This document shows positions 4,223 to 54,952 of a DNA stretch of 64,000 nucleotides, piece by piece. Below the pieces are notes generated by a model. It saw only the letters and a list, made by a program, of their open reading frames with translations, made no database searches and was not told where the DNA came from. A program made the position numbers and the translations under genes. The DNA lies in contig CAYRHT010000004.1 of NCBI GenBank assembly GCA_964424195.1, forward strand, positions 76,769 to 140,768, written 5' to 3'. The DNA is from an uncultured Gammaproteobacteria bacterium (GTDB lineage Bacteria > Patescibacteriota > Patescibacteriia > UBA1558 > S5-K13). How positions within the stretch are numbered: position 1 is the first letter of the stretch; every line of letters starts with the position of its first letter.

Positions 4223-4762
4223 ATGAGAGACAATAATTATAAAAAAAGAGAAAAACCAGAGTTTGATCAACGATTAGTTGATATTGCTAGAGTTACTAGA
4301 GTTATGGCTGGTGGTAAGAGACTAAGATTCAGAGCCTGTGTTGTAATTGGTAATTTAAATAAAAAAATAGGTTGGGGTGTAGCTAAAGGTGCTGATGTCT
4401 CTATTGCTATTAACAAAGCTGTTGATAAAGCTAAAAAAGACATGATAGTAGTTAATGTTAAAGGTGATACTATCCCTCATGAAGTTATGCATAAATTTAA
4501 AGCAGCTAAAGTTTTTATTAAACCAGCTCCAGAAGGAAGAGGAGTAATTGCTGGTGGTGTTATTCGAGATGTCTTAGAACTAGCTGGTATTAAAGATATT
4601 ATTGCTAAAATGTATGGTTGTAAGAATAAAGTAAATAACGTTAGATGTGTTTTTGAAGCTTTAGGAAAACTTAGAAAAGTAGAAGAAGTAAAGAAAGAAG
4701 TTGCTCCATCTACTAAAGCCCCAGAAATTAAGAAAGAAATTAAAAAAGAAGATAAGAAATAA
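4223..4762 (+). CDS. rpsE: 30S ribosomal protein S5 with Lys-rich C-terminal tail
   Basis: RVTRVMAGGKRLRFRA.VV.GN..GKIGWG.AKG S5 signature; rplO follows after only 23 nt (no rpmD/L30). Confidence 0.9.
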   Translation: MRDNNYKKREKPEFDQRLVDIARVTRVMAGGKRLRFRACVVIGNLNKKIGWGVAKGADVSIAINKAVDKAKKDMIVVNVKGDTIPHEVMHKFKAAKVFIKPAPEGRGVIAGGVIRDVLELAGIKDIIAKMYGCKNKVNNVRCVFEALGKLRKVEEVKKEVAPSTKAPEIKKEIKKEDKK

Positions 4763-4785
4763 ATAAATTTAAATTAATTAAATAT

Positions 4786-5385
4786 ATGTTAACCTTAAGC
4801 AATTTACAAGTACAAAAAGGAGCAAAGAAAAAGAAAATACGTCGAGGAAGAGGTAATGCTTCTGGTTATGGTAATTATTCAGGAAGAGGAATGAAGGGTC
4901 AAAGATCTAGAAGTGGTGGTAAATCAGGTTTAAAGAGATTAGGAATGAAGAAATTAATTATTCAATTACCAAAGAAGAGAGGTTTTAACAGAACTAGTAG
5001 AAGATTCAATGTTATTAATTTAAATATTTTAGAACAAAAATTTAAAGAAGGTGAACAAATAACATTTAAAAAGTTAGCAGCACTTGGTTTAATTTCTAAA
5101 CCTAGAGATGGTGTTAAGATTCTAGCTAAAGGTGATATTAAAAAGAAGCTAACTGTTAAAGCTCATAGTTTTTCAAAATCAGCTAAAGAAGCTATAATTA
5201 AAGCAGGTGGTAAAGTTATTGAAACTCCATTTAAAAGGAGAAGCCTATTAGCTGCTAAAAAGAAAAAGGTAGAAGCTAAAGTAATTAAAAAAGAAGATAC
5301 TAAAGAAGTTAAGAAAGTAGCTCCTAAGAAAGCAAAAGCTGCTCCTAAAAAAGTAGTTAAGAAAACAACTAAAACAAAGAAATAA
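4786..5385 (+). CDS. rplO: 50S ribosomal protein L15 with Lys/Ala-rich C-terminal extension
   Basis: RRGRG.ASG.G..SGRG.KGQ.SRSG L15 N-terminal motif. Confidence 0.9.
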   Translation: MLTLSNLQVQKGAKKKKIRRGRGNASGYGNYSGRGMKGQRSRSGGKSGLKRLGMKKLIIQLPKKRGFNRTSRRFNVINLNILEQKFKEGEQITFKKLAALGLISKPRDGVKILAKGDIKKKLTVKAHSFSKSAKEAIIKAGGKVIETPFKRRSLLAAKKKKVEAKVIKKEDTKEVKKVAPKKAKAAPKKVVKKTTKTKK

Positions 5386-5393
5386 ACCTTATA

Positions 5394-6677
5394 ATGCTTA
5401 TCGAAAGACTAAAACAAATTTTCAAGATTAAAGAGTTAAGAAACGCTATTCTTTTTGTTTTTGCAATGTTAGTTATTAGTAGAATAGCTGCTCATATTCC
5501 TATTCCTGGAGTAGATGTTTCTGGTTTAAAAGATTTCTTTGAATCAAACCAATTACTTGGATTATTAAATATGTTTTCTGGTGGTGGGATGAAGAACTTT
5601 TCTATTGTGATGCTTGGTATTGGACCATATATTACTGCTTCAATTATTATTCAGCTTTTAACAATGGTTATCCCAGCTTTAGAGAATTTATCTAAAGAGG
5701 GTGAAGCTGGAAGAACTAAGATAAACTTATATACAAAATACTTAACTATTCCTTTAGCTTTTGTTCAAGGTTATAGTTTTATTACATTATTACAAAGACA
5801 ATCATCATATCAAATGATTGGACATTTAGATATTATTCAATATGCTATAGCTTTAATTACAATCTGTGCTGGAACAATGTTCCTAGTATGGTTAGGTGAA
5901 CTTATCACACAGAAGAATATTGGTAATGGTATTTCATTATTAATCTTTGCTGGTATAGTTTCTGGATGGCTTACTTCATTACAAAGAGCAATCGCTGTCT
6001 ATGACCCATCAAAGATATTTTCTTTGTTAGTATTTTTAGTAATTGCTCTAGCAACTATAGTTGTAGTAGTAATAATTAATGAAGGACAAAGAAACATTCC
6101 AGTATCCTATGCTCGAAGAGTAAGAGGTAACAAGATGTATGGTGGAGTAAATACTCATTTACCTTTGAAGGTAAATCAATCTGGTGTTATTCCAATCATC
6201 TTTGCTATTTCTTTAGTATTGTTTCCATCAATGGTAGCTAAATTCTTTGCTTCAGCTGGTAATCCAAATGTAGCAGCTTTTGCTAATTGGGTTTTAGATT
6301 TATTCCAAAATCAAGTTTTCTATGGATTTATATACTTTACTTTAGTAGTTGCTTTCACATATTTCTATACAGCAATTGTTTTCCATCCTGATCAAATATC
6401 AGAAAATCTACAGAAACAAGGTGGATTTATTCCTGGAATTAGACCAGGAAATCATACAGCTAGTTATCTCCAAAAGATTGTTACTAGAATTAACTTAGCT
6501 GGTGCATTATTCTTAGGTTGTGTAGCTGTTCTACCAGTTTTAACTCAATCATTTACTCAAGGTATTGGTTCTATGGTTGTTGGTGGAACAAGTATTTTAA
6601 TTGTAGTAGCAGTAGTTATTGAAACAGTTAAATCAATGAATTCTCAATTAACAATGAGAAATTACGAAGAGCTTTAA
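5394..6677 (+). CDS. secY: Preprotein translocase subunit SecY
   Basis: 10-TM protein with SecY family similarity; position after rplO. Confidence 0.95.
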   Translation: MLIERLKQIFKIKELRNAILFVFAMLVISRIAAHIPIPGVDVSGLKDFFESNQLLGLLNMFSGGGMKNFSIVMLGIGPYITASIIIQLLTMVIPALENLSKEGEAGRTKINLYTKYLTIPLAFVQGYSFITLLQRQSSYQMIGHLDIIQYAIALITICAGTMFLVWLGELITQKNIGNGISLLIFAGIVSGWLTSLQRAIAVYDPSKIFSLLVFLVIALATIVVVVIINEGQRNIPVSYARRVRGNKMYGGVNTHLPLKVNQSGVIPIIFAISLVLFPSMVAKFFASAGNPNVAAFANWVLDLFQNQVFYGFIYFTLVVAFTYFYTAIVFHPDQISENLQKQGGFIPGIRPGNHTASYLQKIVTRINLAGALFLGCVAVLPVLTQSFTQGIGSMVVGGTSILIVVAVVIETVKSMNSQLTMRNYEEL

Positions 6678-6701
6678 TTAGTTAAGTTTTTTAGTTATTT
6701 A

Positions 6702-6726
6702 ATCGAGTATTACTCGGTTTTTTTGT
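6702..6726 (+). terminator. Rho-independent terminator after secY
   Basis: Hairpin cgagtattactcg (6704-6716) followed by T7 run. Confidence 0.7.
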
Positions 6727-6739
6727 TGTCTTTAAATGC

Positions 6740-6768
6740 TTGACAAATAACTAAATTAATGATATGAT
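6740..6768 (+). promoter_or_regulatory. Near-consensus sigma70-type promoter
   Basis: TTGACA (6740-6745), 17-nt spacer, TATGAT (6763-6768); AGGAGG RBS at 6839-6844. Confidence 0.6.
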
Positions 6769-6846
6769 AGAGAGTTATGAAAAATAAATAGGCGGTCAGC
6801 TAAAGTTAATTCAGAATGAAATGGTTGTTTAAAATTAGGAGGAGCT

Positions 6847-7752
6847 ATGAAAATGCTCAAATTCAATGCTGACAACAAGGTCGGTATTCAAGTAATTAGA
6901 GACTTAAAAGCAGAAATGTTTTTTAAAGTCAGAGTTGTTTATTGTGAATGGATTGAAACAAATGTTTTTGAAGAAGTTTCGTCAAAAACAAAAAATCCAC
7001 ATCTAGCAAAAGCTAGATTCATTATTCAGAACTATCATTGTGAAGATCGTGAAACTTTGAAGAATGCAAAAGTCGGAGATGAATTTAATTTCAAAGTAGA
7101 AAAAGTTCAGTATACTGAAGTAAAGAAAAAGTTTCAGTTAGTGAAAGTTTTCGGAAGACTTGTACCACCATATTCTAGACATGGATTCAAAGATGGACAA
7201 GAAATTGAAGTTAATTTCAAAGGTATGAAAAATGAAAAACCGGTTTTTAACTTTATGGAATCTTCGGACGAAACAAAAAGACTTTTTGTAACTTTGGACA
7301 GAGAATATCGTAAAGAAAGTATGGAGAAATTGATGTCCAGCGAAGACTACAAAGTCTGGAAAGCCAAAGTACACTTCATTGATGACGATTTCATTACTGT
7401 AGAAATTGTAGGTGAAAAACCAATCCGAGATTCTCATAAGCCGAAGATGGTTACTTTCCCCGGATGTCCTGTAGGAGAAGTAGTGGAAACAAAGGTTTTT
7501 TATTCTGATAGAGGTAGAAAAAATTTCCTTGCTCCTCATAAATTATTTGATCAAAGATTGTCCTTTGTGATAAACAGAAATCAACCAAAAGAAGATCAGG
7601 AAAAACAAGAAGCAGTTTTGCAAAATGCAAGATGTAATACAAAGATAAAGATTCAGATCATGAAGATTGTAAAATCTAAAGCTAAAGAAGATACTAAGAT
7701 AGCTTTTGTGCAGATACTGGATCCGGATGAGGCTAAAGGTGCTATAGCTTAA
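6847..7752 (+). CDS. Hypothetical protein (301 aa), inserted between secY and adk
   Basis: Long ORF with strong AGGAGG SD, own promoter and terminator; no recognised domain. Confidence 0.6.
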   Translation: MKMLKFNADNKVGIQVIRDLKAEMFFKVRVVYCEWIETNVFEEVSSKTKNPHLAKARFIIQNYHCEDRETLKNAKVGDEFNFKVEKVQYTEVKKKFQLVKVFGRLVPPYSRHGFKDGQEIEVNFKGMKNEKPVFNFMESSDETKRLFVTLDREYRKESMEKLMSSEDYKVWKAKVHFIDDDFITVEIVGEKPIRDSHKPKMVTFPGCPVGEVVETKVFYSDRGRKNFLAPHKLFDQRLSFVINRNQPKEDQEKQEAVLQNARCNTKIKIQIMKIVKSKAKEDTKIAFVQILDPDEAKGAIA

Positions 7753-7772
7753 TTCTTAAATATTATCATAAT

Positions 7773-7802
7773 GCTCATCTGAATCAGGTGAGCATTTTTT
7801 AT
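7773..7802 (+). terminator. Rho-independent terminator
   Basis: gctcatctga/tcaggtgagc stem (one G-U pair) plus T-run. Confidence 0.7.
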
Positions 7803-7864
7803 TGTTTTAAAGCTTATTTTATAGTAGTATATAGGTATTATTATAATTTAATTAGGAGGAAATT

Positions 7865-8041
7865 ATGTGTTTTGGATACACAGATGAAGAGGTAAGTGCA
7901 ATTATCAATAATTGTAAAAGAGACATTTTACCTCAAGAAGAAAAGTTATATCCGGATAAGGATTGTTTAGATGTAGTTCAAAAAGGATGTCAAAGTTTGA
8001 ATCTAGAAACTATAAAAGCTCTATTTGCTAATGGAGTATAA
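7865..8041 (+). CDS. Small hypothetical protein (58 aa, 4 Cys)
   Basis: ATG 5 nt after perfect AGGAGG (7854-7859); flanked by terminators; below ORF-track size cutoff. Confidence 0.45.
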   Translation: MCFGYTDEEVSAIINNCKRDILPQEEKLYPDKDCLDVVQKGCQSLNLETIKALFANGV

Positions 8042-8049
8042 ATTTATAA

Positions 8050-8072
8050 GGGCTTCTTCGGAGGCCTTTTTG
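8050..8072 (+). terminator. Rho-independent terminator
   Basis: ggcttc-TTCG-gaggcc hairpin with tetraloop plus TTTTT. Confidence 0.65.
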
Positions 8073-8134
8073 TTTGTTTTAAAGCCTAAAATAGAGTAAT
8101 ATAATAGTATATTACAATTAAGATAAGGATTATT

Positions 8135-8761
8135 ATGAATATTATTTTTCTAGGAATGCCCGGAAGTGGTAAAGGAACTCAGGCTGAATTATTAGCAAAG
8201 AAATTGAATATACCAATAGTTTCAACTGGTAATTGTTTTCGTAAGAATATTAAAGATGAGACAGAATTAGGGTTAAAAGTTAAAGATATTTTAGCCAAAG
8301 GTGATTTAGTCCCTGATGAAATTACTTTTGAAATGTTAAAAGGAGAGATACAAAGCGTGGATACTTCTAATGGTTTAATTTTAGATGGTTATCCTCGGAG
8401 TATAAATCAAGCTGAATTATTAAAAGAATTTTTAAACATTGATATAGTTTTGAATATAGAATTATCAGAGGATCAAGTTTTAATTAGAATTGGTGGTCGA
8501 AGAACTTGTAAATGTGGTGAAACATATCATATTAAGTTTAATCCACCAAAAGAAGAAAATACTTGTGATAAGTGTAGTAAGGAATTATATATCAGAGATG
8601 ATTCTAAAGAAGAAACTATTAAGAATAGATTAAAGGTTTACAATGAACAAACAACTCCTTTAATAGAATTCTACAAAGAAGAAATTGTAAATATAGATGG
8701 TAATCCATCAATCCCAGAAGTGACAGAGGAGATTGATAAAGCATTAAAAATAAATGATTAG
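8135..8761 (+). CDS. adk: Adenylate kinase (zinc-lid form)
   Basis: GMPGSGKGTQA P-loop; lid CKCG...CDKC. Confidence 0.95.
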   Translation: MNIIFLGMPGSGKGTQAELLAKKLNIPIVSTGNCFRKNIKDETELGLKVKDILAKGDLVPDEITFEMLKGEIQSVDTSNGLILDGYPRSINQAELLKEFLNIDIVLNIELSEDQVLIRIGGRRTCKCGETYHIKFNPPKEENTCDKCSKELYIRDDSKEETIKNRLKVYNEQTTPLIEFYKEEIVNIDGNPSIPEVTEEIDKALKIND

Positions 8762-9521
8762 TATTAAAACAAAAGAGGAGATTGAAGTACTGGCTAAAGG
8801 CGGGAAGATTTTAGCTAATATTTTAAAAAGAGTTGGTGAAACTGCTCAGATTGGAGTTAGCACTAAAGAGCTGGATGAAATGGCTGAGAAGTTAATTCTA
8901 GAAGCTGGTGGTATTCCTGCTTTTAAAGGCTATGGAGAACCAGATCCATTTCCAGCTACTCTATGTACTTCAGTTAATGAAGCTATTGTGCATTCTATTC
9001 CCAGTGATTACAAATTAAAAGATGGGGATGTTATTGGTTTAGATATTGGAATGAAATGGCCAGCTCAGGATGGATTATTTACTGACCATGCAATTACAGT
9101 TGCTATTGGTGATACTAAAGCAGAGAATCTAGAATTAATGAGAGTAACTAAAGAATGTTTGAATAAAGCTATTAGTATTTTAAAACCAGGAATGTATATT
9201 AATGATATTGGAAGAGCTATTGAAGAATATGTTAAATCTCAAGGAGATTATGGAATTATTAGAGACCTAGTTGGTCATGGAGTCGGTCATAAAGTTCATG
9301 AAGAACCAAAGATTGTTAATTTTGCTACTAAAGAAAATGGAGCAGAGATTAAAGAAGGAATGGTTTTAGCTATTGAACCAATGATTACTTTAGGAACTCA
9401 CAAGATTAAAGTTGATAGTAATGGTTGGGATATTATTACTCAAGATCGTTCTATATCAGCTCATTTTGAACATACAGTAGCGATTACTAAGACAGGAAAT
9501 AAAATTATAACTAGTATATGA
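8754..9521 (+). CDS. map: Methionine aminopeptidase type I
   Basis: MetAP metal-ligand motifs (DIGMK..., HGVGH.VHE..). Confidence 0.95.
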   Translation: MISIKTKEEIEVLAKGGKILANILKRVGETAQIGVSTKELDEMAEKLILEAGGIPAFKGYGEPDPFPATLCTSVNEAIVHSIPSDYKLKDGDVIGLDIGMKWPAQDGLFTDHAITVAIGDTKAENLELMRVTKECLNKAISILKPGMYINDIGRAIEEYVKSQGDYGIIRDLVGHGVGHKVHEEPKIVNFATKENGAEIKEGMVLAIEPMITLGTHKIKVDSNGWDIITQDRSISAHFEHTVAITKTGNKIITSI

Positions 9522-9949
9522 GATTTTTAGGAATAGATCACGGACAATCAAAGATAGGTTTAGCTTTAGGAGATAATGAAGCTAATTTTTCTTTACCTTA
9601 CAAAATAGTAAAAACAGAGGAGTTTTTTAATGTTATTCATAGTGTTTTAGAAGAAGAAAGTATTGAAGAAATAGTTTTAGGACTACCAAAGAATCTTAAT
9701 AATGAAGAAACTCAACAAACTGCAATAGTATATGATTTTCTAAAAGAATTAAAAGAAGAAGTTAAACTACCAATTCATTTAGAAGATGAAAGAATGACTT
9801 CAGTGATGGGCAAAGGAATGCAAGGTAGATACCTTAGAGAAGATTCTAGAAAAGAGAATAGAAAGGATAAAGTAAAGATTAAATCTGATGAAGATGCTTC
9901 TTCCGCAGCTTTAATATTAGAAACATTTTTAAAGAGAAATTATGAATAG
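9518..9949 (+). CDS. ruvX: Putative pre-16S rRNA nuclease / Holliday-junction resolvase-like YqgF
   Basis: LGIDHGQSKIGLALGD N-terminal RNase H-like motif. Confidence 0.85.
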   Translation: MRFLGIDHGQSKIGLALGDNEANFSLPYKIVKTEEFFNVIHSVLEEESIEEIVLGLPKNLNNEETQQTAIVYDFLKELKEEVKLPIHLEDERMTSVMGKGMQGRYLREDSRKENRKDKVKIKSDEDASSAALILETFLKRNYE

Positions 9950-11027
9950 AATTTATATATACGCTATTATTTTTATTATATCTCTTCTAATGAGTTATTT
10001 TTTAACTTTATTAGCTAAGAAATTATCTTTTAAATTTAAAATACTTGATTACCCTAATGAAGAGAGGAAGATTCATCATCAACCCATAGCTCTTTTAGGT
10101 GGTTGGGCAATCTATCTAAGTTTTTCTATTCTAACTCTATTATTCATTATTTTCTTCCCAGATTTAATCTTAACTTATAATATTAGTTTCTGGCAGGTAA
10201 TTGGAATTATTATTGCTGGTTTAATTTTAATGGTTAGCGGGACCTTTGATGACAAGTATAATTTGAATGCTGGACAACAACTATCTCTAACTATTTTAGC
10301 TTGTCTGGTTATAATTTTTAGTGGAACAACTATTAAATTTATTACTCGACCAGGAGGAGGGATTATAGATTTAGGTGGTTCTCAAATTAGTTTCTTAGGA
10401 CAAGAATTTTATTTAATTGGAACAGTTTTAACTTTCTTTTGGCTTTTAATAATTACTAACACAACTAAGCTTTTAGATGGTCTAGATGGATTAGCTAGTG
10501 GAATCACTGGTATTGGAATGATAATCCTCTTCATAGTTTCTTTATTCTGGGATGCTCCTCAGAGCGGAACTAGTATTTTAATTCTAATGCTAGCTGGTTC
10601 TATATTTGGATTTTTAATATTAAACTTTCATCCAGCTAAGATATTTCTAGGTAATGGCGGAAGTACTTTTCTAGGTTTAGCAATTGGAGTGATGGCAATT
10701 ATTAGTGGAGCTAAGATTGCTACAGCTCTATTAGTCATGGGACTTCCTTTACTTGATATGGTTTGGGTAATTATCCAAAGATTAAGAAAAGGAGAGTCTC
10801 CTTTCAAACATGCTGATCAAAAGCATTTACATTTTCGTCTATTAAGTTTAGGATTAAGTAAGAGGCAAACAGTTTTAAGTTTGTATCTAATTTCATTATT
10901 CTTTGGATTCATTGCTTTATTCCAAGGAACAATAGGGAAGTTAACTAGCTTAACAATCCTAGTTTTATTTATTATAATAATATTTAGTTTTATTTATTAC
11001 CAAAATGAAAAAATTAAAAACAATTAG
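9942..11027 (+). CDS. Glycosyltransferase family 4 polyprenyl-phosphate sugar-1-phosphate transferase (WecA/TagO-like)
   Basis: FDDKYNL, NxxNxxDGLDGL, and C-terminal block resembling WecA (PLLDMVWVIIQRLRKGESPF...H.HHRLL). Confidence 0.75.
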   Translation: MNRIYIYAIIFIISLLMSYFLTLLAKKLSFKFKILDYPNEERKIHHQPIALLGGWAIYLSFSILTLLFIIFFPDLILTYNISFWQVIGIIIAGLILMVSGTFDDKYNLNAGQQLSLTILACLVIIFSGTTIKFITRPGGGIIDLGGSQISFLGQEFYLIGTVLTFFWLLIITNTTKLLDGLDGLASGITGIGMIILFIVSLFWDAPQSGTSILILMLAGSIFGFLILNFHPAKIFLGNGGSTFLGLAIGVMAIISGAKIATALLVMGLPLLDMVWVIIQRLRKGESPFKHADQKHLHFRLLSLGLSKRQTVLSLYLISLFFGFIALFQGTIGKLTSLTILVLFIIIIFSFIYYQNEKIKNN

Positions 11028-14407: not shown

Positions 14408-14848
14408 TTACCATCCATACTCGCTATAAAACTTTTTGTCTTTAATTTGCTCAAAGACAAATCTAATATAATCAATAGTATTATCAGGTAGATTATCTAT
14501 TGGAAACCACGACAAATCATCACACTTATTAGGCTCCATGTTTTTGACTTCATCTTGCTGTTTATTAGTTATAAAAAAAGCATCTACCCACTCAACCTTT
14601 TCTTCTGATTTTCGATGCATAATATGTACTATATTTACATCATCTGTTTTTAATGTGATTCCTATTTCTTCTTTAACTTCCCGAATTAAAGTCTGAGTAA
14701 ATGTTTCATTTTTTTCTACATGACCAGAAGGAATGCCATATTTTCCGTCATTATAGCCCGTATTATAACGACGCTGTAATAATACTTTATTATCTTTCAT
14801 TAATATAAGATAAGAGGCGGTCATATTATGGGGTTTCTTTTTATTCAT
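14408..14848 (-). CDS. NUDIX hydrolase
   Basis: Nudix box GHVEKNETFTQTLIREVKEEIGI. Confidence 0.8.
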   Translation of the reverse strand: MNKKKPHNMTASYLILMKDNKVLLQRRYNTGYNDGKYGIPSGHVEKNETFTQTLIREVKEEIGITLKTDDVNIVHIMHRKSEEKVEWVDAFFITNKQQDEVKNMEPNKCDDLSWFPIDNLPDNTIDYIRFVFEQIKDKKFYSEYGW

Positions 14849-14858
14849 GATTTTATAT

Positions 14859-15158
14859 TTAAGTAGCTAATTTAAATTTTTTTACTTTATTTTTTAAAAT
14901 AGGACTGAGAACTCGTCTTTCTTTTTCAAGATTATAATGTAGTTGAAGATTAAGCCAGAATTCAGGAGAATTATTAAAGTATTTTGCTAATCTCAAGGCT
15001 GTATCAGCAGTAATAGCTCTTTTGTTTTTAACAATTTCACTAATTCTAATAGCAGGAACATTAATGTCCTTTGCTAAACGATACATAGTGATATTAAGGG
15101 GTTTTAAAAATTCTTCTTTTAATATTTCACCAGGATGAATTTGTTTTATTTTACTCAT
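14859..15158 (-). CDS. higA: HigA antitoxin (XRE-family HTH)
   Basis: IHPGEILKEEFL.PL.I..YRLAKDI.VPA.RISEIV..KRAITADTALRLAKYF. Confidence 0.85.
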   Translation of the reverse strand: MSKIKQIHPGEILKEEFLKPLNITMYRLAKDINVPAIRISEIVKNKRAITADTALRLAKYFNNSPEFWLNLQLHYNLEKERRVLSPILKNKVKKFKLAT

Positions 15159-15162
15159 ATAT

Positions 15163-15444
15163 TTAATGATAATCTATTATTTGGACTTGATAAGCATGAC
15201 CATTATTCCATTCAAATATTATTCGCCATTGATCGTTGATCCGAATACTATGTTTATTCTTAAATTTACCTTTCATCAGTTTAAGATGATTAGAAGGAGG
15301 AGTATGTAAATCATTTAAAGAAATAGAAGCTTCTAAAATTAATAATTTCATCAAAGCTTTCTTTTGAATTGAAGTAGGTAATTTTTTAGAATATTCATAA
15401 TTGAATATCTTTTTAGTTTCTTTACAATTAAAAGTTTTAATCAT
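15163..15444 (-). CDS. higB: HigB toxin (RelE/ParE superfamily)
   Basis: ...LKLMKGKFKNKHSIRINDQWRIIFEW..GHAYQVQIIDYH; 4 nt upstream of higA. Confidence 0.8.
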   Translation of the reverse strand: MIKTFNCKETKKIFNYEYSKKLPTSIQKKALMKLLILEASISLNDLHTPPSNHLKLMKGKFKNKHSIRINDQWRIIFEWNNGHAYQVQIIDYH

Positions 15445-19519: not shown

Positions 19520-22500
19520 TTATTTATTTAAATCTAATTTCAACTGTTTCTTTTTAATTATTTTCTTTACTAAGAATTTAATTAATCTAATTATTTTCTT
19601 TAAAAGTGGTTTACGTTCTTCTTTCTCACCTTCTAACATTACATAAAGAGCAGGAACAACTACTAAAGTTAAAACAGTAGCAAAGGTTAATCCAAAGATA
19701 ATTGAATAACTTAATCCAGCCCAGAAGGGATCAGCAAATGCTAAAGGTAATAATCCAATAACAGTAGTTACGGTTGTTAGAATGATTGGTTGTAATCTAG
19801 ACATGGCTGCTTCATGAATTGCGGGAATAAATTCCATCTTAGTTTTTCGAATGTTGTAATTAATTCGAGAAATTAAAACAATGGCATCATTAACCACAAT
19901 ACCTACTAAGGATATTACCCCAATAAAGGCTGAAATGCTAAAGTTTAATCGTAATATTGTTAATCCGAAGACAACTCCAATTAAAGAGAGTGGTAGAGTG
20001 AACATAATGATTAGAGGTTGCTTGAAAGAGTTGAATTGTAGAACTAAAATAGTAATAATCAAAAGTACAGCTACAATCAAAGTAGTAAACATCTCTTGAA
20101 ATGATTTTTCAATATCTTCTTGCTCTCCACCATATTCGATAAAGTAATTTTTTGGTAATTCGTAAGTTTCTAATTTAGTAGCTAGTTCTTTAAAGGTTTT
20201 AGTAGCGTTATATCCATTCTTCAAAGAAGAGGAGACTCTAATAACTCGTTCTGAATTTTGATGTTGAATTGAAGATACACTTGGTTCAAACCCTATATTT
20301 GAGATAGCTGAAAGAGATATTTGTCCTTTAGGAGAAGATATTAAAATATTCTTTACATCTTCAATATTATCAAAATTATCTTCATCATATTTAACTTGAA
20401 TTTTAATATCTTTTCCTTCTTTAGTAACTTCTGAGGCAGTAGTTCCATAGACTATTTGTCTTAAAGACATGGCTACTTGAGCTACACTTAGATTATAGTA
20501 GCTTAATTTGTTTTGATCTAAGTTGATGACAAATTGTCCAGTAGTATTTTCTAAATCTGTTTCAATATCAATAGGACCATCTATTCCTTCTAAGAATACT
20601 TGAATATCACCAGCTATCTTATTTAGTTCATTTAAATCATCACCAGTAACTCGGACTTCAATTGGAGAGCCAGCTGGAGGACCACCAGCCATTGGTGGAA
20701 TAGTAATCTTAATATCATCTTTATTATATTGTTCAAAGTAATCTCGAGCTTCTTGAGCTAATTCATTACTTGTTTTTTCTCGATCATCTGGATCAATTAA
20801 ATTAACAGTGATATTGGCTAAATGAGTTTTAGTAGAACCACTATCCCAACCCCAACCCTGAGAAGAACCAATGACCATCACATAGTTTTCACATTCTTCA
20901 ATAGATCGAACATATTCTTCAATAGGTTTCATTCTTTCTTCAGTTGTTTCAATGACTGTTCCGTTTGGTGTTTCGATGTTTACAAAAAAGTAATCAAAAT
21001 CAAACTCAGGGAACATTTCTACTTTCATTAATCCAATAATTGGAAAGAGAACAGAGATAACAAATAATCCAATGAATGACCAGATAAGAGTTCTACGATA
21101 TTTTTTACTAGGCAATAGTTTTTTTAATAATATTTCATATTTAGCCTTAACTGGAACTAAAAGTCTTTCTAAAAGAGGAACCTTTGGATTTATAATCTTC
21201 ATTAACTTAGATTTTTGATGAGGCTCATCAGCTTTATCATGTCTATTTTTCTTTCTTCTTAAAATTCGAGAAGCTAGCATCGGTAGGATTGTGAGAGAGA
21301 TGAATAAAGAAGAAGCTAGAGTAAAGAGAATTGTTAAAGGTATATATTTTAAATATTCTCCCATTATTCCAGAAATTAAAAGCATGGGAACAAAGGCAGA
21401 TATAGTAGTCATTGTTCCAGAAATTAAAGCTAATTTAAAAGTAGCTAGAGAGTGCAGAGCAGCATTAAGGGCAGTCATTCCCTTATGCTCCATAGCTTCA
21501 AATATTCCTTCCATAATTACAATGGAAGTATCAACCAGAAGTCCCAGAGATAGTACTAATGAAAAAGTGGTCATACTGTTTAAAGTAAAACCAATTACTT
21601 TCATAAAAAAGAATGATGATAGGAATGCTAGAGGAATTACAAAAACTGCTAAACTGGATTCTTTCCAACCCATAGCAATAAATATAATTAAAATGATTAA
21701 AAAGATTGTTTGAACAGCACTTTTACCTAAAGTATTTAAATCTTTTTCAACATAAACAGAGTTATCATTAGTAATCTTGATGTTTAGATCTTCTGGCACT
21801 CTTTTGTTATCTTTTAATTTATTTACTTCTTGTTTAGCACTTTCTACTATTTTTAAAATATTACCACCTGTTTTTTTATAAACTTGAATAGATATTGTAT
21901 TTTGAGGTTCACCACCAGCAACAGATAATCGAGAGATGGTAGTCTTATCTTTAAAGGTATCTTTAATCTCAGCAATATCTTTTAAATAAATAGGCTGGTC
22001 TTGATTGTAGGTAATGATTAGGTTTTTTAGAGGTTCAATTTCTGTAAAACGACCCTCAGTTCTTAAGCTATATTTATAGCCATCAATTTCAATATTACCT
22101 AAAGGCATATCAATATTTGAAGCAGCAATTATATTACTAACCATTGAGATATCTAAACCATATCCTTGTATTTTTTGTTGATCAATTGTAATTTGATATT
22201 CCTTTTTTAATTCACCAAGAATAGGAGCTTTGGATACTCCAGGGATGTTTTCCAATTTATCTTGCATTAAGTCAGCGTATTCTTGTAATTGAGAATTATT
22301 ATAGTTTCCAAATAAAGAAAAAGTAATTAGAGGAAAATCATTAGCTCTAATTTCAGTAACAATTGGATCTTCTGCTTCATCTGGTAATCTAGGTTTAGCA
22401 GTGTCAACAGCATCACGAAGATTTCGCATAGCTTCTTTCATGTCTACTTCTGGATCAAATTGAACAAAGATAGAAGAGAAGCCAATATTAGAACTAGAAG

Positions 22501-22807
22501 TCATCTCATCTAGATTTTCTAAATTATCTATTTCAGATTCTAATTTATTAGTAATTAAATATTCAATATCTTCTGGAGCAGCTCCAGTATACATTGTATT
22601 TACAACCGCAAAAGGGATTTTAACTTCTGGATCTGATTCTCGGGGTAGAGTAGCTAAACTCATTATTCCGAATAGGAAGATAGCTCCAATGATTAAATAG
22701 GAGAAACGAAAATGTTTAATAAAAAAACCAAAGAAAGAATTAGTACTTTCTAATTCATATTTCTTCTCTGCTTCATTAGAAAAATTAGGAGTGTTATTTA
22801 ATTCCAT
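19520..22807 (-). CDS. RND-superfamily efflux transporter permease (AcrB-like)
   Basis: 1095 aa, 12-TM architecture with two large loops, AcrB-family similarity. Confidence 0.9.
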   Translation of the reverse strand: MELNNTPNFSNEAEKKYELESTNSFFGFFIKHFRFSYLIIGAIFLFGIMSLATLPRESDPEVKIPFAVVNTMYTGAAPEDIEYLITNKLESEIDNLENLDEMTSSSNIGFSSIFVQFDPEVDMKEAMRNLRDAVDTAKPRLPDEAEDPIVTEIRANDFPLITFSLFGNYNNSQLQEYADLMQDKLENIPGVSKAPILGELKKEYQITIDQQKIQGYGLDISMVSNIIAASNIDMPLGNIEIDGYKYSLRTEGRFTEIEPLKNLIITYNQDQPIYLKDIAEIKDTFKDKTTISRLSVAGGEPQNTISIQVYKKTGGNILKIVESAKQEVNKLKDNKRVPEDLNIKITNDNSVYVEKDLNTLGKSAVQTIFLIILIIFIAMGWKESSLAVFVIPLAFLSSFFFMKVIGFTLNSMTTFSLVLSLGLLVDTSIVIMEGIFEAMEHKGMTALNAALHSLATFKLALISGTMTTISAFVPMLLISGIMGEYLKYIPLTILFTLASSLFISLTILPMLASRILRRKKNRHDKADEPHQKSKLMKIINPKVPLLERLLVPVKAKYEILLKKLLPSKKYRRTLIWSFIGLFVISVLFPIIGLMKVEMFPEFDFDYFFVNIETPNGTVIETTEERMKPIEEYVRSIEECENYVMVIGSSQGWGWDSGSTKTHLANITVNLIDPDDREKTSNELAQEARDYFEQYNKDDIKITIPPMAGGPPAGSPIEVRVTGDDLNELNKIAGDIQVFLEGIDGPIDIETDLENTTGQFVINLDQNKLSYYNLSVAQVAMSLRQIVYGTTASEVTKEGKDIKIQVKYDEDNFDNIEDVKNILISSPKGQISLSAISNIGFEPSVSSIQHQNSERVIRVSSSLKNGYNATKTFKELATKLETYELPKNYFIEYGGEQEDIEKSFQEMFTTLIVAVLLIITILVLQFNSFKQPLIIMFTLPLSLIGVVFGLTILRLNFSISAFIGVISLVGIVVNDAIVLISRINYNIRKTKMEFIPAIHEAAMSRLQPIILTTVTTVIGLLPLAFADPFWAGLSYSIIFGLTFATVLTLVVVPALYVMLEGEKEERKPLLKKIIRLIKFLVKKIIKKKQLKLDLNK

Positions 22808-22819
22808 TTTATATTTTTA

Positions 22820-24517
22820 TTAATAATCAGAAATTTCAACTTCTGTGCCTTCGTTTAATAATTTAGCATTTTCAATAGCTATTTGTTCACCCTCTTCTAG
22901 ACCATTACTAATAACTATTTTATCATTAATGATTTGGAGGTATTCAACTATTCTATTAACTATCTTATTATCTTCAATTATTTTTACAGTAGCTGTGTCC
23001 TGTTCTAGGTCTACTGCTTTCAAAGGAATAATATAGATGTTTTCTTGTTCAGCTAATTTACTTAAAGGAATTTGGACATCAGCAAAGGATTCTGGTATTA
23101 AATCTAAATTACTATTATTATATCCTATTTCAATAGTTACTTTTTTACTAACTGGATCAGCAATTGGATTAATTTTACTTAAAGTTCCAGGGAAAATGTT
23201 ATTAATCATTACTTCATCACCAAGAGTTAGGAAACTAACATTTTCAGCTGGAATTGATGTTTCTATTTTAACATGGTTAACAACAGATATTTCAAATAAT
23301 CCTTGGCCAGCATTTACTTCATCACCAATTTCAACCATCTTGTTGGAAATTACTCCAGTGAAAGGAGCAATAATATTTTGTCTAGATTTACTAATTCCAA
23401 CTAGATCTAAATTAGTCTGAGCAGATTGTAAAGAATTCTCTGCTCCACTGATTGCTAGAATCTTTCCTTGGTTAGCATTAGCTAGGGCTGTTTCAGCACT
23501 AGTTAATCCAATTTGAGATAATCTAAGGGCACTATTGATTTGATCTAATAGACCTCTATTAACTAATCTTATACTTTCTATTCCTTGAAGAGTTGTATTA
23601 GCATAACTTAGGTTTGTAGAAACTGTATTTTGATAACTAATAGTACTATTAGTTAAAGTAGATAAAGAAGTTTGATTAAAATCAGAAGAAATTATAGTAG
23701 AGTACATTCCTAAGAGAATTGTATCAATTAAAGATTTAGAGTCTCCTAAGAGCATAATTGTTTCACTAAGAACTTCTTCTATATTATTTTTATTAATTTC
23801 TTGATTATATATTTCTTCATAATCATTTTTCAATCTTTGATATGAAGATTTAGCTTGGTTTTTGTAGCTAAAATTCCGAGCTGAGAATACATTTTCTAAA
23901 CCACTATAAATTACTTGATGATCTACTCCTAAAATACCATCAGCAAAATCTAAAGTATTATAAACATTATTTAAATATCCTTCATTACTAATAATAGAGT
24001 TATTCAAGGTGTCATTTAATGATTTAGTAGTACTTTCAATAGTATCAGTATGAGTAGATTCAGCTAATTGTAGAGATTCTTGAGCTTGTTCTAAAGCTAA
24101 TTTAGCCTGAGTTAGAGTTTCTTCAGCACTAATTAAGCTACTATTGTAGGAATTAAGAGCTGTATTGTAGGAATTAAGAGCTGAAGAATAATTAGTTTCA
24201 GTTCTGGCATCAAAGAGGTAGGCCAATGATTGACCAATTAGTAATTCATCTCCTTGTTCAGCTAGAATGTTAGTTACTGTTCCACCAGTTAGAGCTTTAA
24301 TAACTACAGATTTTAGAGGTTTAATAGTTCCAGTAATTTCCATCATTACTGTTTCACTTTGTTTAGAAACAGTCATAACTTGGATTTTAGGTTTAATAGT
24401 TTCAATTACCTCTTTATCAGTATCCTTGTTAGAACAAGCAGTTAAAGAGAATAACAAAACTAAGGTCATTAGAATAGCGACTTGTTTTCGGTATTTATTG
24501 ATCATATATTTAATCAT
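22820..24517 (-). CDS. Efflux adaptor / membrane-fusion protein (HlyD-like) lipoprotein
   Basis: Lipobox LTAC, long coiled-coil, C-terminal beta-barrel block IIAPFTGVIS...VEIGDEV; upstream of RND gene. Confidence 0.8.
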   Translation of the reverse strand: MIKYMINKYRKQVAILMTLVLLFSLTACSNKDTDKEVIETIKPKIQVMTVSKQSETVMMEITGTIKPLKSVVIKALTGGTVTNILAEQGDELLIGQSLAYLFDARTETNYSSALNSYNTALNSYNSSLISAEETLTQAKLALEQAQESLQLAESTHTDTIESTTKSLNDTLNNSIISNEGYLNNVYNTLDFADGILGVDHQVIYSGLENVFSARNFSYKNQAKSSYQRLKNDYEEIYNQEINKNNIEEVLSETIMLLGDSKSLIDTILLGMYSTIISSDFNQTSLSTLTNSTISYQNTVSTNLSYANTTLQGIESIRLVNRGLLDQINSALRLSQIGLTSAETALANANQGKILAISGAENSLQSAQTNLDLVGISKSRQNIIAPFTGVISNKMVEIGDEVNAGQGLFEISVVNHVKIETSIPAENVSFLTLGDEVMINNIFPGTLSKINPIADPVSKKVTIEIGYNNSNLDLIPESFADVQIPLSKLAEQENIYIIPLKAVDLEQDTATVKIIEDNKIVNRIVEYLQIINDKIVISNGLEEGEQIAIENAKLLNEGTEVEISDY

Positions 24518-33888: not shown

Positions 33889-35496
33889 ATGTTTTTGTCA
33901 AAAAACAATAAAGTTAATTTTAAAGTAACTGTTGCCAGTTTAGTTTTGGTATCAACAGTTATTTTTTTTATACCTTTAATTTCATCAGCTCAAATATTAG
34001 TTCCTCAAGTTGCTAATCTAGGAACAGCAGATATTAAAACAATGGCTGGAACACTTATTCAAGTATTCCTAGGTCTTTTAGGTTTAATTGCTTTAGTGAT
34101 AATTATTTATGGTGGATATGTTTGGATGACTTCTGGTGGTAATGAAGAAAAAGTTACTCAAGCTAAGAAAATATTAACATCAGCAGTGATTGGCATTATA
34201 ATTATTATGACTTCCTATGTTATAACTAGTTTTATATTAGAATCTGTTCAAAATAATTCTGGTAATAATGGTTCTAATAATCCGAATGGTAACAACATTA
34301 GTACTGGTTTAGGAAGCGGGGCTTTAGGAGGTGGTTTAATTGAATATCACTATCCAGAAAGAGATGCTGACGATGTTCCTCGAAATACTATGATTATGAT
34401 TACTTTTAAAACACCAATAGCTTTAGAGAGTGTTATTGATGGTAATTTTGGAAATGATGCTACTTGTGATCCTTATATCACAGAAGAAGGAATTGAGTGT
34501 GGAAAGTTAAGTGAAAAGATTCAAATTTTAGATAATGGATTTTTAAGAGATAATGAAATGATTATTGCTGTTTTAACTGCAGATGCTCAAAGAGTTTTAA
34601 TTAAACCAATAGAGGCTCTAGGAAATGAAGATTCAAATACTAATACTACTATTCGTTTAGCTTCTGATATGGAAAGTGTCGAAGGACAGACCTTATTTCC
34701 AGGATTAGAAAATGGTTATAGTTGGCAATTTGAAATTAGTACCTTTCTAGATTTAACTCCTCCAGAAGTTACTTTTGTTTGGCCAGCTCAAGATGATATA
34801 GTAGCTCGAAATGCAATTGTGCAAATTAATTTTTCAGAACCAATAAACATTTTAAGTGTTGATGGTAATATTCTTATTCAAGATGATGATAATTTAACAG
34901 GTGAGCTAAAAATTAGTAATCAATATCGAACTGTAGAATTTTTATCAGATGGAGACTGTGGTGGAGTAAATATCAATTCTTGTGGTGAGAAGGTTTTCTG
35001 TTTACCAGCTACTTCTTTAATTAGAGGAGTTGTTGATAATATTGGTGATGCTTCGGGAAATATTATGTCCGAAGAATATCTTTGGACTTTTAGCACTAGT
35101 AATGAAGTAAATACTACTGCTCCAGAAATTACTAATGTTTCTCCAAGTACAATTAATGTTCAAATCAATCCTAATCCTCAAATTTCAGCAATTTTTGATA
35201 AAGTTATTAGTCCGAGTTCTTTAAATACGGATAATTTTTATATCTATAATAATAGTGCTTGTGATGGAGAAGAATATGAAGATCAAGAAGGAAAGAGTCG
35301 AATCAATAATATTTGTTTGCCATCCTATTCAGTTTTTGCGAACGAAGATAATCATAGATGTAATATTAAATTGTATGCACCATACTTAGATCAATTTTCT
35401 AATTATCGTCCTCGTTTAACTTCAGAAATTAAAGATTCTTATGGAAATTGTTTTAATAGTGCTATTGGACCAGGTGGTAGTGGACAACAAAATTAG
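33889..35496 (+). CDS. Surface protein: signal peptide + two-helix pilin-like N-module, then Ig-like (Big_5-type) repeats (535 aa)
   Basis: N-terminal 115 aa about 80% identical to start of next gene; PPEVT/APEIT Big-like repeat starts. Confidence 0.6.
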   Translation: MFLSKNNKVNFKVTVASLVLVSTVIFFIPLISSAQILVPQVANLGTADIKTMAGTLIQVFLGLLGLIALVIIIYGGYVWMTSGGNEEKVTQAKKILTSAVIGIIIIMTSYVITSFILESVQNNSGNNGSNNPNGNNISTGLGSGALGGGLIEYHYPERDADDVPRNTMIMITFKTPIALESVIDGNFGNDATCDPYITEEGIECGKLSEKIQILDNGFLRDNEMIIAVLTADAQRVLIKPIEALGNEDSNTNTTIRLASDMESVEGQTLFPGLENGYSWQFEISTFLDLTPPEVTFVWPAQDDIVARNAIVQINFSEPINILSVDGNILIQDDDNLTGELKISNQYRTVEFLSDGDCGGVNINSCGEKVFCLPATSLIRGVVDNIGDASGNIMSEEYLWTFSTSNEVNTTAPEITNVSPSTINVQINPNPQISAIFDKVISPSSLNTDNFYIYNNSACDGEEYEDQEGKSRINNICLPSYSVFANEDNHRCNIKLYAPYLDQFSNYRPRLTSEIKDSYGNCFNSAIGPGGSGQQN

Positions 35497-54500: not shown

Positions 54501-54952
54501 CTATTTATGCTTGGAATTATGACGGTAGTTTAATTAATAATTTTCCTAAAATAACACAATCTTCAGTATATTCTCCAGTTGTTATTTCTGATATTGATAA
54601 TAATAATTTTTTAGAATTAATTGCTACATCTAATTCATTCAATTATGAAGATGGGATAGTTGAAAGAGTTATTTATGTTTGGGATTTAGATGCTTCTTCT
54701 AATTCTAATGAATTATCTTGGTCGCAATTTAGGCATGACAATCAAAATACTGGTAATTATAATTTTAGAAGATGTTCTAATGAAGTAGCTTATAGCGAAT
54801 GTTCTAGTGAGCAACCATTATTTTGTAGTAATGGAGAATTGATAGATGATTGTCAGGAATGTGGATGTCCAATGGATGAATCTTGTCAGGAAGACGGAAG
54901 TTGCGATTTGACTAAATCTAAAGAGACAGAAGCAACACCTAATACTCGTTAA
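51509..54952 (+). CDS. Membrane-anchored papain-like (C1) cysteine protease fused to PEGA domain and FG-GAP-type beta-propeller, Cys-rich C-terminus
   Basis: QGNCGSCWSFA (Cys), GYHAVLIVGYG (His), WIVKNSWGEDWGDNGY (Asn); PEGA-like block; at least 8 D.NNDG..E repeats. Confidence 0.8.
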   Translation: MKEENRTGITTQVAQRVSTKTKVLVGVVMGLAIVGMFAFVGMAFENVKNSDYYKKLNIQVQLKKKGYFVNQDMDSYASFDNLGQDMMDRSFNDREEKELGIKDIQGVLEKKGTLWQGVDNKIFKLNKEKKENLLGLEITEEELREAKERERNQIVSRDGELPNFFDWRDLHGGLDYTTPVRDQGNCGSCWSFAALGAFEANIEAYYNNPNLNIDLSEQDLVSCYLGDGCNGAYTGEIESLFNDYFQNTGVANETCFPYTETDIDCENKCSDWQNEAWKTVSFVSSEMTIDDIKTALIENGPLEVGMEVYADFPAYDNGIYHHVTGDLLGYHAVLIVGYGVYDGMDYWIVKNSWGEDWGDNGYFKILAGDSLIDSLFAYGIEQPEKLIEDSPERLCVDQDEDGYCYWGLGDVPSTCSSTCILDISDCNDANEGIFEDCGENTETTGFLNITSEPSDAEVYIKDLDSNNWIYRGNTPLEIELNVGEREVLVSKEDYIDDEEIVLINEDSTGNYFVELNLAPKLISPENRDILRAGGIIEIIGTVPGPDLESFSIEYGLGENPTEWFTEGIDLINNGQVPIVEDVLATWNTSFITEDNFYTLRLIINFTNEGETFYIENLYLDSTLKEGWPIKLDNRESDVYWGLFQPSVADLNNDGNKEIIVYEAGNDNKLYVYDYAGNILPNFPVNLPSDGLESIVVLPAIGDINNDGFKEIIILGGNIYTVDCGRAPLILIYDYYGNQLDSFPLAYPDLPYGCDTFSIDQPAISLADLNQDGNLEIIVLGGTAITILDNFGNTFNGWPKYLSGWVGGTHESSPAVGNLDDDDDLEIIVSKDWAPTQGNPVDNKGMIYVWNFNGTNVPGWPIETHGYSHSSATIGDIDNDGENEVVVGFNYDENPPNDYGIYIYDNNGNVLDGWPQLYNKEVWSNPVLGDFDNNNELEIIVSSFYHPYETYIFDNNGNVLDGWPQQMCYADWYSPIVSDITGDGILDVITNNNFDSDCSIYAWNYDGSLINNFPKITQSSVYSPVVISDIDNNNFLELIATSNSFNYEDGIVERVIYVWDLDASSNSNELSWSQFRHDNQNTGNYNFRRCSNEVAYSECSSEQPLFCSNGELIDDCQECGCPMDESCQEDGSCDLTKSKETEATPNTR

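Follow-up and report, generated by a model that had tools for sequence, protein, structure and literature searches.

Two orphan genes at the secY-adk operon boundary of a Patescibacteria genome: a probably old, clade-restricted gene and a small reading frame between copies of the adk promoter

Two orphan units between secY and adk

The 64-kb stretch of DNA analysed here (64,000 nucleotides (nt) of contig CAYRHT010000004.1, assembly GCA_964424195.1; hereafter the window) carries an extra segment of 1.45 kb (6678-8134) between secY and adk. It holds two genes, here called orf301 and orf58 after the lengths of their products in amino acids (aa), both of which are recorded as 'hypothetical protein' on the 953-kb contig. 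We consider it probable that these are two separately transcribed orphan units at an operon boundary, an older, clade-restricted orf301 and an orf58 lying between duplicated adk promoters, and that they reflect ordinary gene gain and not a mobile insertion. The original prediction, made before any database had been searched, had described the segment as one self-contained, inserted two-gene module, which splits an ultra-conserved junction and whose arrival duplicated the adk promoter region.

Four related loci recur below: L091 and L092, which carry homologues of orf301; L011, the nearest species representative (SecY 80% identical to that of the window); and L094, from a metagenome scan that added at least one close relative among the matches listed. 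The elements of the segment and its two boundary genes are as follows, with terminator z-scores comparing the folding energy with that of shuffled sequences.

5394-6677, + strand: secY (Pfam SecY, 2.7e-105), last gene of the S10-spc cluster and upstream boundary
6701-6727 (hairpin 6701-6719), + strand: T1, weak intrinsic terminator after secY, with an 8-bp stem and a U-run (-7.0 kcal/mol, z -3.15)
6723-6739, + strand: degenerate copy of the post-terminator motif, TTGTTGTCTTTAAATGC, by direct reading of the sequence
6740-6768, + strand: P1, the orf301 promoter, of sigma-70 type: TTGACA-17-TATGAT, its -10 extended by a TG
6769-6846, + strand: leader of orf301, rich in AT; its AGGAGG (6837-6842) stands 4 nt before the start codon at 6847 (ATG)
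6847-7752, + strand: orf301, 301 aa
7770-7796, + strand: T2, strong terminator of orf301, found by scan (-15.8 kcal/mol, z -4.4)
7792-7838 and 8064-8110, + strand: copies 1 and 2 of a direct repeat, 47 nt, 74% identity, spacing 272 nt
7802-7830, + strand: P2, adk-type promoter upstream of orf58, in repeat copy 1 (TTGTTT 7802-7807, 17-nt spacer, TAGTAT 7825-7830)
7854-7859, + strand: AGGAGG, the Shine-Dalgarno sequence (SD) of orf58, 5 nt before the ATG at 7865
7865-8041, + strand: orf58, 58 aa, acidic (isoelectric point (pI) 4.5), four Cys
8048-8069, + strand: T3, terminator after orf58, its stem beginning 7 nt past the stop codon (-11.7 kcal/mol, z -4.05)
8074-8102, + strand: P3, orthologous adk promoter, in repeat copy 2 (TTGTTT 8074-8079, 17-nt spacer, TAATAT 8097-8102)
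8135-8761, + strand: adk (Pfam ADK, 9.1e-45, and ADK_lid), first gene of the adk-map-ruvX-... unit and downstream boundary

The three terminators, the TTGACA-17-TATGAT promoter, both AGGAGG sequences and the two open reading frames (ORFs), of 301 aa and of 58 aa with Cys, lie where the original prediction had placed them, and each gene does have a promoter, SD and terminator of its own. P1 scores 11 of 12 positions, tying for the best promoter in the first 12 kb, and both L091 (TTGACA-17-TATACT) and L092 (TTGACA-17-TATGAT) have its counterpart in the same position. The leader that follows can be aligned with the leaders in these two loci, with GTTGTTT...AAAATTAGGAGG conserved; no conserved secondary structure was predicted in its roughly 70 nt, and Rfam gave sub-threshold noise and no credible match over 6600-8200. 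AGGAGG occurs 23 times on the two strands of the 64 kb, and just five of these copies precede ORFs of at least 58 aa. The T1 hairpin (GATCGAG...CTCGG) is common to L092, L011 and L094, and GGTGAGCATTTTTTATTGTTTTAAAGC, which makes up the 3' arm and the tail of T2, matches GGTGAGGGATTTATTGTTTTAAAGC, the second terminator in L091 and L092.

On these signals orf301 and orf58 are predicted to be independent sigma-70 transcription units with intrinsic terminators. The weak T1 would end the secY transcription unit, and adk would open another from its own conserved promoter, TTGTTT-17-TAATAT. Unit 1 would thus comprise P1, a leader of about 70 nt without structure, AGGAGG, orf301 and T2, and would be the older resident of the slot. 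Unit 2 (272 nt) would comprise P2, AGGAGG, orf58 and T3, set between diverged copies of the adk promoter.

The orf301 gene, its family and its age

The homologue searches for orf301 covered about 15 billion proteins. A word-indexed protein search returned the query itself and nothing else, and no match was found in Pfam, NCBIfam, PHROG or PADLOC. The homologue search that the original prediction had proposed was made with phmmer, exhaustively over 1.84e9 representatives, and found two homologues, P0002 (324 aa) and P0003 (317 aa). A profile search added no further one, and these two are the only relatives among the 1.84e9 representatives and 5.8e9 clusters covered. Both are encoded immediately 3' of secY, in L091 and L092, so that all three members of the family sit at one locus type. 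The window protein is 41-43% identical to the other two by phmmer and 39-40% by BLASTP and tblastn, and P0002 and P0003 are 50% identical to each other.

The surroundings of the homologues are also alike. L091, with a SecY 83% and an Adk 69% identical to those of the window, has the order secY, terminator, TTGACA-17-TATACT, leader, AGGAGG, orf301 homologue, two terminators, adk promoter, adk, with no orf58. The L092 SecY, so far as it is present, has 87% identity, and the upstream architecture matches; the contig of L092 ends past the promoter. The ATG at 6847 is favoured as the start of orf301 over that at 6853 because the homologues also have AGGAGG 4 nt before the ATG.

Alignment of the three proteins gives 82 invariant positions, and every gap preserves the frame. 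The rate of nonsynonymous substitution (dN) is 0.34-0.49 and that of synonymous substitution (dS) 1.4-2.6, which is saturated, for a dN/dS of about 0.19-0.29. On this evidence orf301 is a real, selectively maintained and fast-evolving gene under purifying selection. Its GC content at third codon positions (GC3) is 0.26, against a mean of 0.168 (standard deviation (sd) 0.044) for the genes of the window, and only one of the 54 genes has a higher value; the trend in ribosomal-protein genes is the opposite (0.06-0.2). All three family genes (window 6847-7752; L091 1603-2577; L092 573-1526) have a GC3 of 0.26-0.31, compared with 0.13-0.21 in their neighbours. Since the synonymous sites are saturated, the raised GC3 cannot be a leftover of recent import.

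Taken together, this argues that orf301 is an older, clade-restricted resident of the secY-adk slot. The proposal that it had been inserted recently does not stand, given homologues 39-43% identical in the same position, with the same regulatory architecture and saturated dS. Nor are both genes universal in the lineage, the finding that was to have made them ancestral operon members: orf301 is absent from L011, and so is clade-restricted yet not universal. One point tells against a firmer statement of this history. The window, L091 and L011 have SecY proteins that are 80-82% identical to one another, a trichotomy in a SecY tree from which L094 was left out, so gain in a sub-clade and loss in L011 are not separable.

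Duplication of the adk promoter

The motif that the original prediction had noticed after two of the terminators, TTGTTTTAAAGC, is exact at 7802 and 8074 and at no other site of the window. The third, degenerate copy that it had reported after the secY terminator is indeed present as TTGTTGTCTTTAAATGC, although this aligns only loosely with the adk-promoter element. The similarity does extend beyond the motif, to the 47-nt direct repeat, and is well above chance: the two copies align locally with a score of 30, whereas 5000 shuffles averaged 14.0 (sd 2.4) and reached 25 at most, and the best score of the repeat against any other site of the window is 22.

Three relatives, L091, L092 and L011, share the element, TTTT(A/G)TTGTTTTAAAGC(C/T)TA..ATA.AGTAATATA(G). 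It lies before adk in L091, past the terminators of the orf301 homologue in L092, and past a small ORF before adk in L011. Copy 2, which contains P3, is nearly identical to the L091 element before adk, TTGTTTTAAAGCCTAAAATAAAGTAATATAG. Since it reads as TTGTTT (-35) and TAATAT (-10) separated by 17 nt, and recurs in all three loci, the repeated element is the orthologous adk promoter of the clade, not a general motif.

A promoter-bearing segment has therefore been duplicated, as had been suspected; the duplication encloses a 272-nt unit (SD, orf58 and T3), however, and not the whole 1.45 kb, so it brackets orf58 alone and does not mark the insertion of a two-gene module. The ancestral context survives on the left of the upstream copy, as the tail of T2, and on the right of the downstream copy, as adk. 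The orf58 unit may have arisen by, or may persist alongside, a tandem duplication of the adk promoter region. Recombination between the repeats could lose the unit again and would leave the order seen in L091, namely orf301 homologue, terminator, single promoter and adk.

The secY-adk junction in related bacteria

The distance from secY to adk was measured at 162 related loci, classed by the identity of their SecY to that of the window. Below 50% identity (records titled Chloroflexota or Dehalococcoidia where listed), adk lies within 300 nt in all 96 informative relatives, and against this usual arrangement the 1.45 kb is, as had been claimed, extra. At 50-60% identity (mostly Patescibacteria by record title), 28 loci have the two genes adjacent, eight have a gap of more than 300 nt and six have no adk within at least 3 kb. 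Among the closest relatives, at 60% or more, three are adjacent, six have a gap of more than 300 nt and one has no adk within 6 kb. The description of the junction as ultra-conserved thus holds for the 96 distant relatives but fails within the clade, where it is broken in seven of the ten informative close relatives. The gaps hold unrelated ORFs:

L011: a 78-aa ORF
L094: a small ORF and a TTGACA-promoted membrane protein
L019: an acidic 120-aa protein
L029: a membrane protein and a Cys-rich 78-aa ORF
L026 (7266-11106): 3.8 kb with a 373-aa reverse-transcriptase-like ORF that has a YADD motif, judged by eye
L036: a phosphatase-like ORF, by eye

The reverse-transcriptase-like ORF may belong to a group II intron or be of the retron type. 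Compared in this way, the junction is a variable slot in the lineage of the window.

Other signs of change were seen at these loci. In L011 (8860-10100), adk and map are separated by two ORFs that by eye are Nudix-like, and the 5' end of map occurs twice, at 9945-9997 and at 10044-10100. The truncated upstream copy matches residues 2-17 of the window Map in 15 of 16 aa, closer than does the N-terminus of L011's own Map, which suggests that this insert arrived by recombination with the DNA of a relative.

Heptanucleotide tandem repeats occur in the intergenic regions of relatives, right after stops or before starts: (TATAAGC)n after secY in L091 (1234-1440), long enough to break the assembly with a run of N; (AGAAGTA)5 after secY in L092 (350-385); GAATAAC-like repeats after adk in L011 (about 8770-8810); and (ACTTTAT)4 before adk in L091 (2747-2775). 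No comparable repeat is present at 6678-6700 of the window. A palindrome of about 39 nt, CCCTGTTAAA...TTTAACAGGG, lies near promoters in L092 (428-467), where it interrupts a TTGACC/TTGACA pair that lies upstream of the orf301 homologue, and in L011 (7980-8019). It looks like a small repeat of the miniature inverted-repeat transposable element kind, and CCCTGTTAAA is absent from the window.

orf58: small protein or leader?

No homologue of orf58 other than itself was found among 5.8e9 clusters, no match was found in Pfam, NCBIfam, PHROG or PADLOC, and no paralogue or source DNA turned up in the window or the relatives' loci. Its codon usage is typical of the genome. The closest resemblances are to the small ORFs of L011 and L094, which have a similar promoter, SD and start in the absence of orf301. 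The promoter, SD and first codons of orf58 (ATG TGT TTT GGA TAC A) are collinear with those of a 29-codon ORF after secY in L094 (ATG TTT GGA TAC A), with an alignment score of 28 that was reached by 7 of 2000 shuffles. The likeness to the region before the 78-aa ORF of L011 is weaker (32 of 2000 shuffles reach the score), and the two proteins have a 24-residue stretch in common (BLASTP 4e-4; 4 of 5000 shuffles).

These resemblances suggest that the small-ORF unit may predate the species while its coding sequence is not conserved. They are weak (p about 1e-3 to 1e-2), which counts against any firm dating of orf58. They also bear on the notion of a single two-gene module, which does not fit the relatives: L091 has an orf301 homologue without orf58, and L011 and L094 have a small ORF without orf301.

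From its sequence, orf58 would be a species-level orphan: a small protein that evolves very fast, or else an ORF of the leader type. The second of these, which we regard as rather unlikely, would make orf58 functionless as a protein, a leader, upstream or fortuitous ORF in a duplicated adk 5' region, with the tandem promoters and T3 forming a regulatory device in which termination and read-through into adk could be modulated by a ribosome that halts 7 nt short of the T3 stem. The stop codon (8039-8041) does lie 7 nt from the stem at 8048, the resemblance to the L094 and L011 ORFs (29 and 78 codons) covers the promoter, SD and first few codons and the rest is unrelated, and the want of any other homologue would suit such an ORF. 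Folding of 7960-8080, however, formed the T3 hairpin in the minimum-energy structure with no competing antiterminator, and P3 follows directly after T3, so that read-through is not needed for expression of adk. For these two reasons a leader-peptide attenuator of the orf58/T3/adk type is not supported. The perfect AGGAGG at 5 nt, the typical codon usage and the 58 uninterrupted codons fit a real small protein, and under the two-unit reading orf58 would be a translated, very fast-evolving small ORF.

Possible fold and function of orf301

The orf301 product is basic (pI 9.25) and hydrophilic (grand average of hydropathy, GRAVY, -0.60), with no obvious signal peptide or membrane segment on inspection by eye. 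We tentatively favour, at somewhat less than even confidence, a cytoplasmic tandem protein resembling S1 or oligonucleotide/oligosaccharide-binding (OB) folds that binds nucleic acid, probably RNA. This reading rests on a three-sequence AlphaFold (AF2) model (mean predicted local distance difference test, pLDDT, 43.5), which is beta-rich and has the order b1-b2-b3-helix-b4-b5 twice (residues 25-106 and 119-190), the order of an OB fold; residues 205-295 have the same hydrophobic pattern, by eye. Foldseek searches with this model put bS1 chains at the top of the PDB ranking (9tvu, 3.6e-5; 9gut, 6.4e-5), followed by S1 domains D3-D4 in 7a05, the cold-shock domains Unr CSD789 and the multi-S1 protein 3go5 (E up to 3e-3). 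In BFVD the top matches were phage 'S1' proteins (5.8e-6 and 3.3e-5). The S. pneumoniae protein 3go5 presumably belongs to the CvfB/YitL family, with three S1 domains and a C-terminal winged helix.

Sequence comparisons point the same way. A six-domain profile of E. coli S1 aligned end to end with residues 165-232 in hhalign (E 0.032; reversed control 0.33), and three sites, around residues 77, 117 and 209, match the S1 b4 motif 'vGdEvxvxV' at P 0.003-0.03, where reversed controls gave 0.1-0.6. There is a weak internal repeat (83-149 against 169-243, E 0.013), and the gene contains a 17-nt DNA repeat (7080-7096 and 7206-7222). The strong promoter and perfect SD suggest high expression of orf301 next to translation genes. 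Since most bS1 proteins from CPR (candidate phyla radiation) bacteria have 3-4 S1 domains (PMC9297842), a multi-S1-like protein of about 300 aa would not be out of place in the phylum.

Several results weigh against this assignment. The pLDDT of 43.5 is low, and the Foldseek template-modelling scores (TM-scores) are only 0.16-0.2. A second AF2 model, of residues 67-200, is also of low confidence (pLDDT 50) and gave no significant Foldseek match and no S1 match. Each hhalign signal is non-significant alone. No S1 (PF00575), S1_2 (PF13509), CvfB_WH, CSD or other Pfam match was found in orf301, P0002 or P0003 at E up to 10, in a search that recovered six S1 stretches in E. coli bS1 (1e-103) as positive control, and a sequence-profile search of the PDB returned nothing relevant and one chance match (E 0.3). 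Finally, the GC3 of orf301 is unlike that of a codon-optimised, highly expressed gene.

The competing possibility, to which we give a little less weight and which is on balance unlikely, is that orf301 is another kind of fast-evolving beta-rich protein, a PilZ-like or small-barrel signalling protein or adaptor, or a factor in conflict between episymbiont and host or phage, and that its position near translation genes is accidental. The best, non-significant matches of the second model were PilZ-type and Hcp-type barrels. A dN of 0.34-0.49 while SecY stays 83-87% identical, the extremely narrow phyletic range, the missing S1 Pfam signal and the unrelated genes, membrane proteins included, that neighbouring lineages hold in the slot would all suit such a protein. 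Its hydrophilic, basic character and lack of an obvious signal or membrane segment do not, PADLOC and PHROG lend no support, multi-S1 proteins head the ranking for model 1 in each of two structure libraries searched independently, and the weak hhalign signals all point to S1.

That orf301 is the clade's own hyper-divergent bS1 or its replacement, relocated beside the ribosomal-protein cluster, is very improbable: bS1 chains are its best Foldseek matches, CPR bS1 proteins with 3-4 S1 domains (PMC9297842) would by our estimate have roughly 300-400 aa, and the gene, whose promoter and SD are strong, lies where the spc cluster ends, but the S1 domains of a genuine CPR bS1 can be recognised (PMC9297842) and none of the three family members shows any, L011 has no such gene at the locus, the GC3 runs opposite to that of ribosomal-protein genes, and a canonical rpsA elsewhere in the genome of about 0.95 Mb is the default expectation (no S1-domain protein was found among the ORFs scanned in the window, 64 kb of that genome).

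Reading orf301 as a tandem S1/OB-like protein invites a bolder proposal, which we hold to be improbable as a whole. In it orf301 would found a new clade-restricted tandem S1/OB-like RNA-binding family, recruited to the end of the ribosomal-protein cluster in a small Patescibacteria lineage as an abundant lineage-specific factor of translation or RNA metabolism, and the secY/adk boundary would be a reusable landing pad at which terminator-plus-promoter repeats mediate the gain and loss of orphan genes.

Mobile origin

A recently acquired, self-contained two-gene cassette, brought in by horizontal transfer or a mobile element and duplicating the adk promoter on insertion, is highly unlikely. In favour of it, L011, the nearest species representative, lacks the segment, as do most other bacteria; the segment carries promoters and terminators of its own and a promoter-bearing direct repeat; and the GC3 of orf301 is 2 sd above the gene mean. 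Against this, orthologues of orf301 at about 40% identity and with saturated dS occupy the same locus in L091 and L092, and their equally raised GC3 makes this a maintained property and not an un-ameliorated import. The two genes do not travel together and the repeat flanks orf58 alone. Across secY-map, the window agrees at 99.97-100% identity with eleven contigs that come from the metagenomes of different samples.

A mobile element or genomic island was also rejected on its own terms. The segment contains two ORFs, neither with a family match, and no integrase, transposase or recombinase; no inverted repeats bound 6678-8134, where the lone strong direct repeat is the one around orf58; and no match was found in the INPHARED phages, PLSDB plasmids or IMG/VR. 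The GC content of the segment is inside the range of the window.

A toxin-antitoxin or defence pair was likewise considered and rejected: L091 has the orf301 homologue without orf58, and the two genes are predicted to be transcribed separately, with a strong terminator between them. PADLOC gave nothing for the proteins of the window and one marginal match, for P0002 (E 0.003).

Genomic surroundings

The window has about 30% GC and opens with the S10-spc ribosomal-protein cluster (...L18, S5, L15, secY). 3' of the two orphan genes come adk, map, ruvX, a glycosyltransferase gene and then housekeeping genes. Its SecY is nearest to those of metagenome-assembled genomes of the Patescibacteria/CPR (Komeili-, Buchanan-, Falkow- and Magasanikbacteria-type records).

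In the ribosomal-protein cluster, uS5 and uL15 (4223-5385, + strand) have long Lys-rich C-terminal tails, e.g. ...KKKKVEAKVIKKEDTKEVKKVAPKKAKAAPKKVVKKTTKTKK; CPR uL15 tends towards a shortened C-terminus (PMC9297842). Further along, a HigB-like toxin (PF05015, 4.6e-20) beside an HTH_3 protein (14859-15444, - strand) looks like a type II toxin-antitoxin pair, and a Nudix gene lies next to it (14408-14848).

An ORF of 2996 aa (35526-44516, + strand) has Cys-rich internal tandem repeats of 90 nt and 126 nt (42594-42791 and 43853-44094) and is preceded by a gene for a protein with T4SS-pilin and Big_5 domains (33889-35496, + strand). A 1147-aa protein with a papain-like protease, FG-GAP and PEGA domains is encoded at 51509-54952 (+ strand). 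These three would be large proteins, secreted or on the cell surface, such as are common in CPR genomes.

The window also encodes a full-length AcrB-type transporter of the resistance-nodulation-division (RND) family (PF00873, 2.9e-196) with an HlyD-type membrane-fusion protein (19520-24517, - strand), which is notable because relatives of this bacterium are, to our knowledge, usually thought to lack an outer membrane.

Significance and comparison with known systems

Orphan genes are abundant in Patescibacteria. What is described here is a known process, the colonisation of an operon boundary by lineage-specific orphan genes, and current understanding is not overturned. Two features go beyond the ordinary, the narrow yet conserved orf301 family with its possible divergent multi-OB fold, and the clean promoter duplication around orf58. 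If the two-unit reading is true, the locus would be a compact and datable example of a reduced CPR genome adding lineage-specific genes at an operon boundary, each with full, strong expression signals and with a promoter duplication marking the junction. orf301 would be an unannotated, selectively maintained family, and maybe a new and very divergent multi-OB RNA binder near translation genes.

As a protein, orf301 is comparable with multi-S1 proteins such as bS1 and 3go5 in its length of about 300 aa, its basic character and, in the model, its beta-rich N-terminal two-thirds and helix-containing C-terminus. Its best structural matches (bS1, S1 D3-D4, Unr CSD789 and 3go5) and the weak profile alignment at 165-232 belong to the same likeness. 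It differs from them in having no S1, S1_2 or CvfB_WH Pfam match, in TM-scores below 0.2 from a low-confidence model, in S1-like motifs that are irregularly spaced (about 40 and 92 residues), and in belonging to a family of three known members at a single locus.

Tandem duplication of a promoter region, making a slot for a new small ORF, is a general route by which orphan or de novo genes arise. The orf58 unit resembles this in its 272 nt bounded by 47-nt repeats with the adk promoter, enclosing an ORF without homologues. Unlike a simple promoter duplication, it includes a coding segment of about 180 nt for which no similar DNA was found in the window or the relatives. The promoter, SD and start may moreover be common to L094 and L011, in which case the unit may not be young.

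The closest precedent for the locus as a whole is the invasion of inter-operon regions of the ribosomal-protein cluster by small genes (PMC8046335). In both, foreign or novel small genes are lodged at the boundary of two concatenated core operons, here the spc operon ending in secY and adk-map, with their own signals and with the core genes left intact. That pattern comes from Gammaproteobacteria and Bacilli, whereas the present case is from Patescibacteria, and here the slot holds different orphan genes in nearly every close relative and one of its occupants is bracketed by a duplicated promoter.

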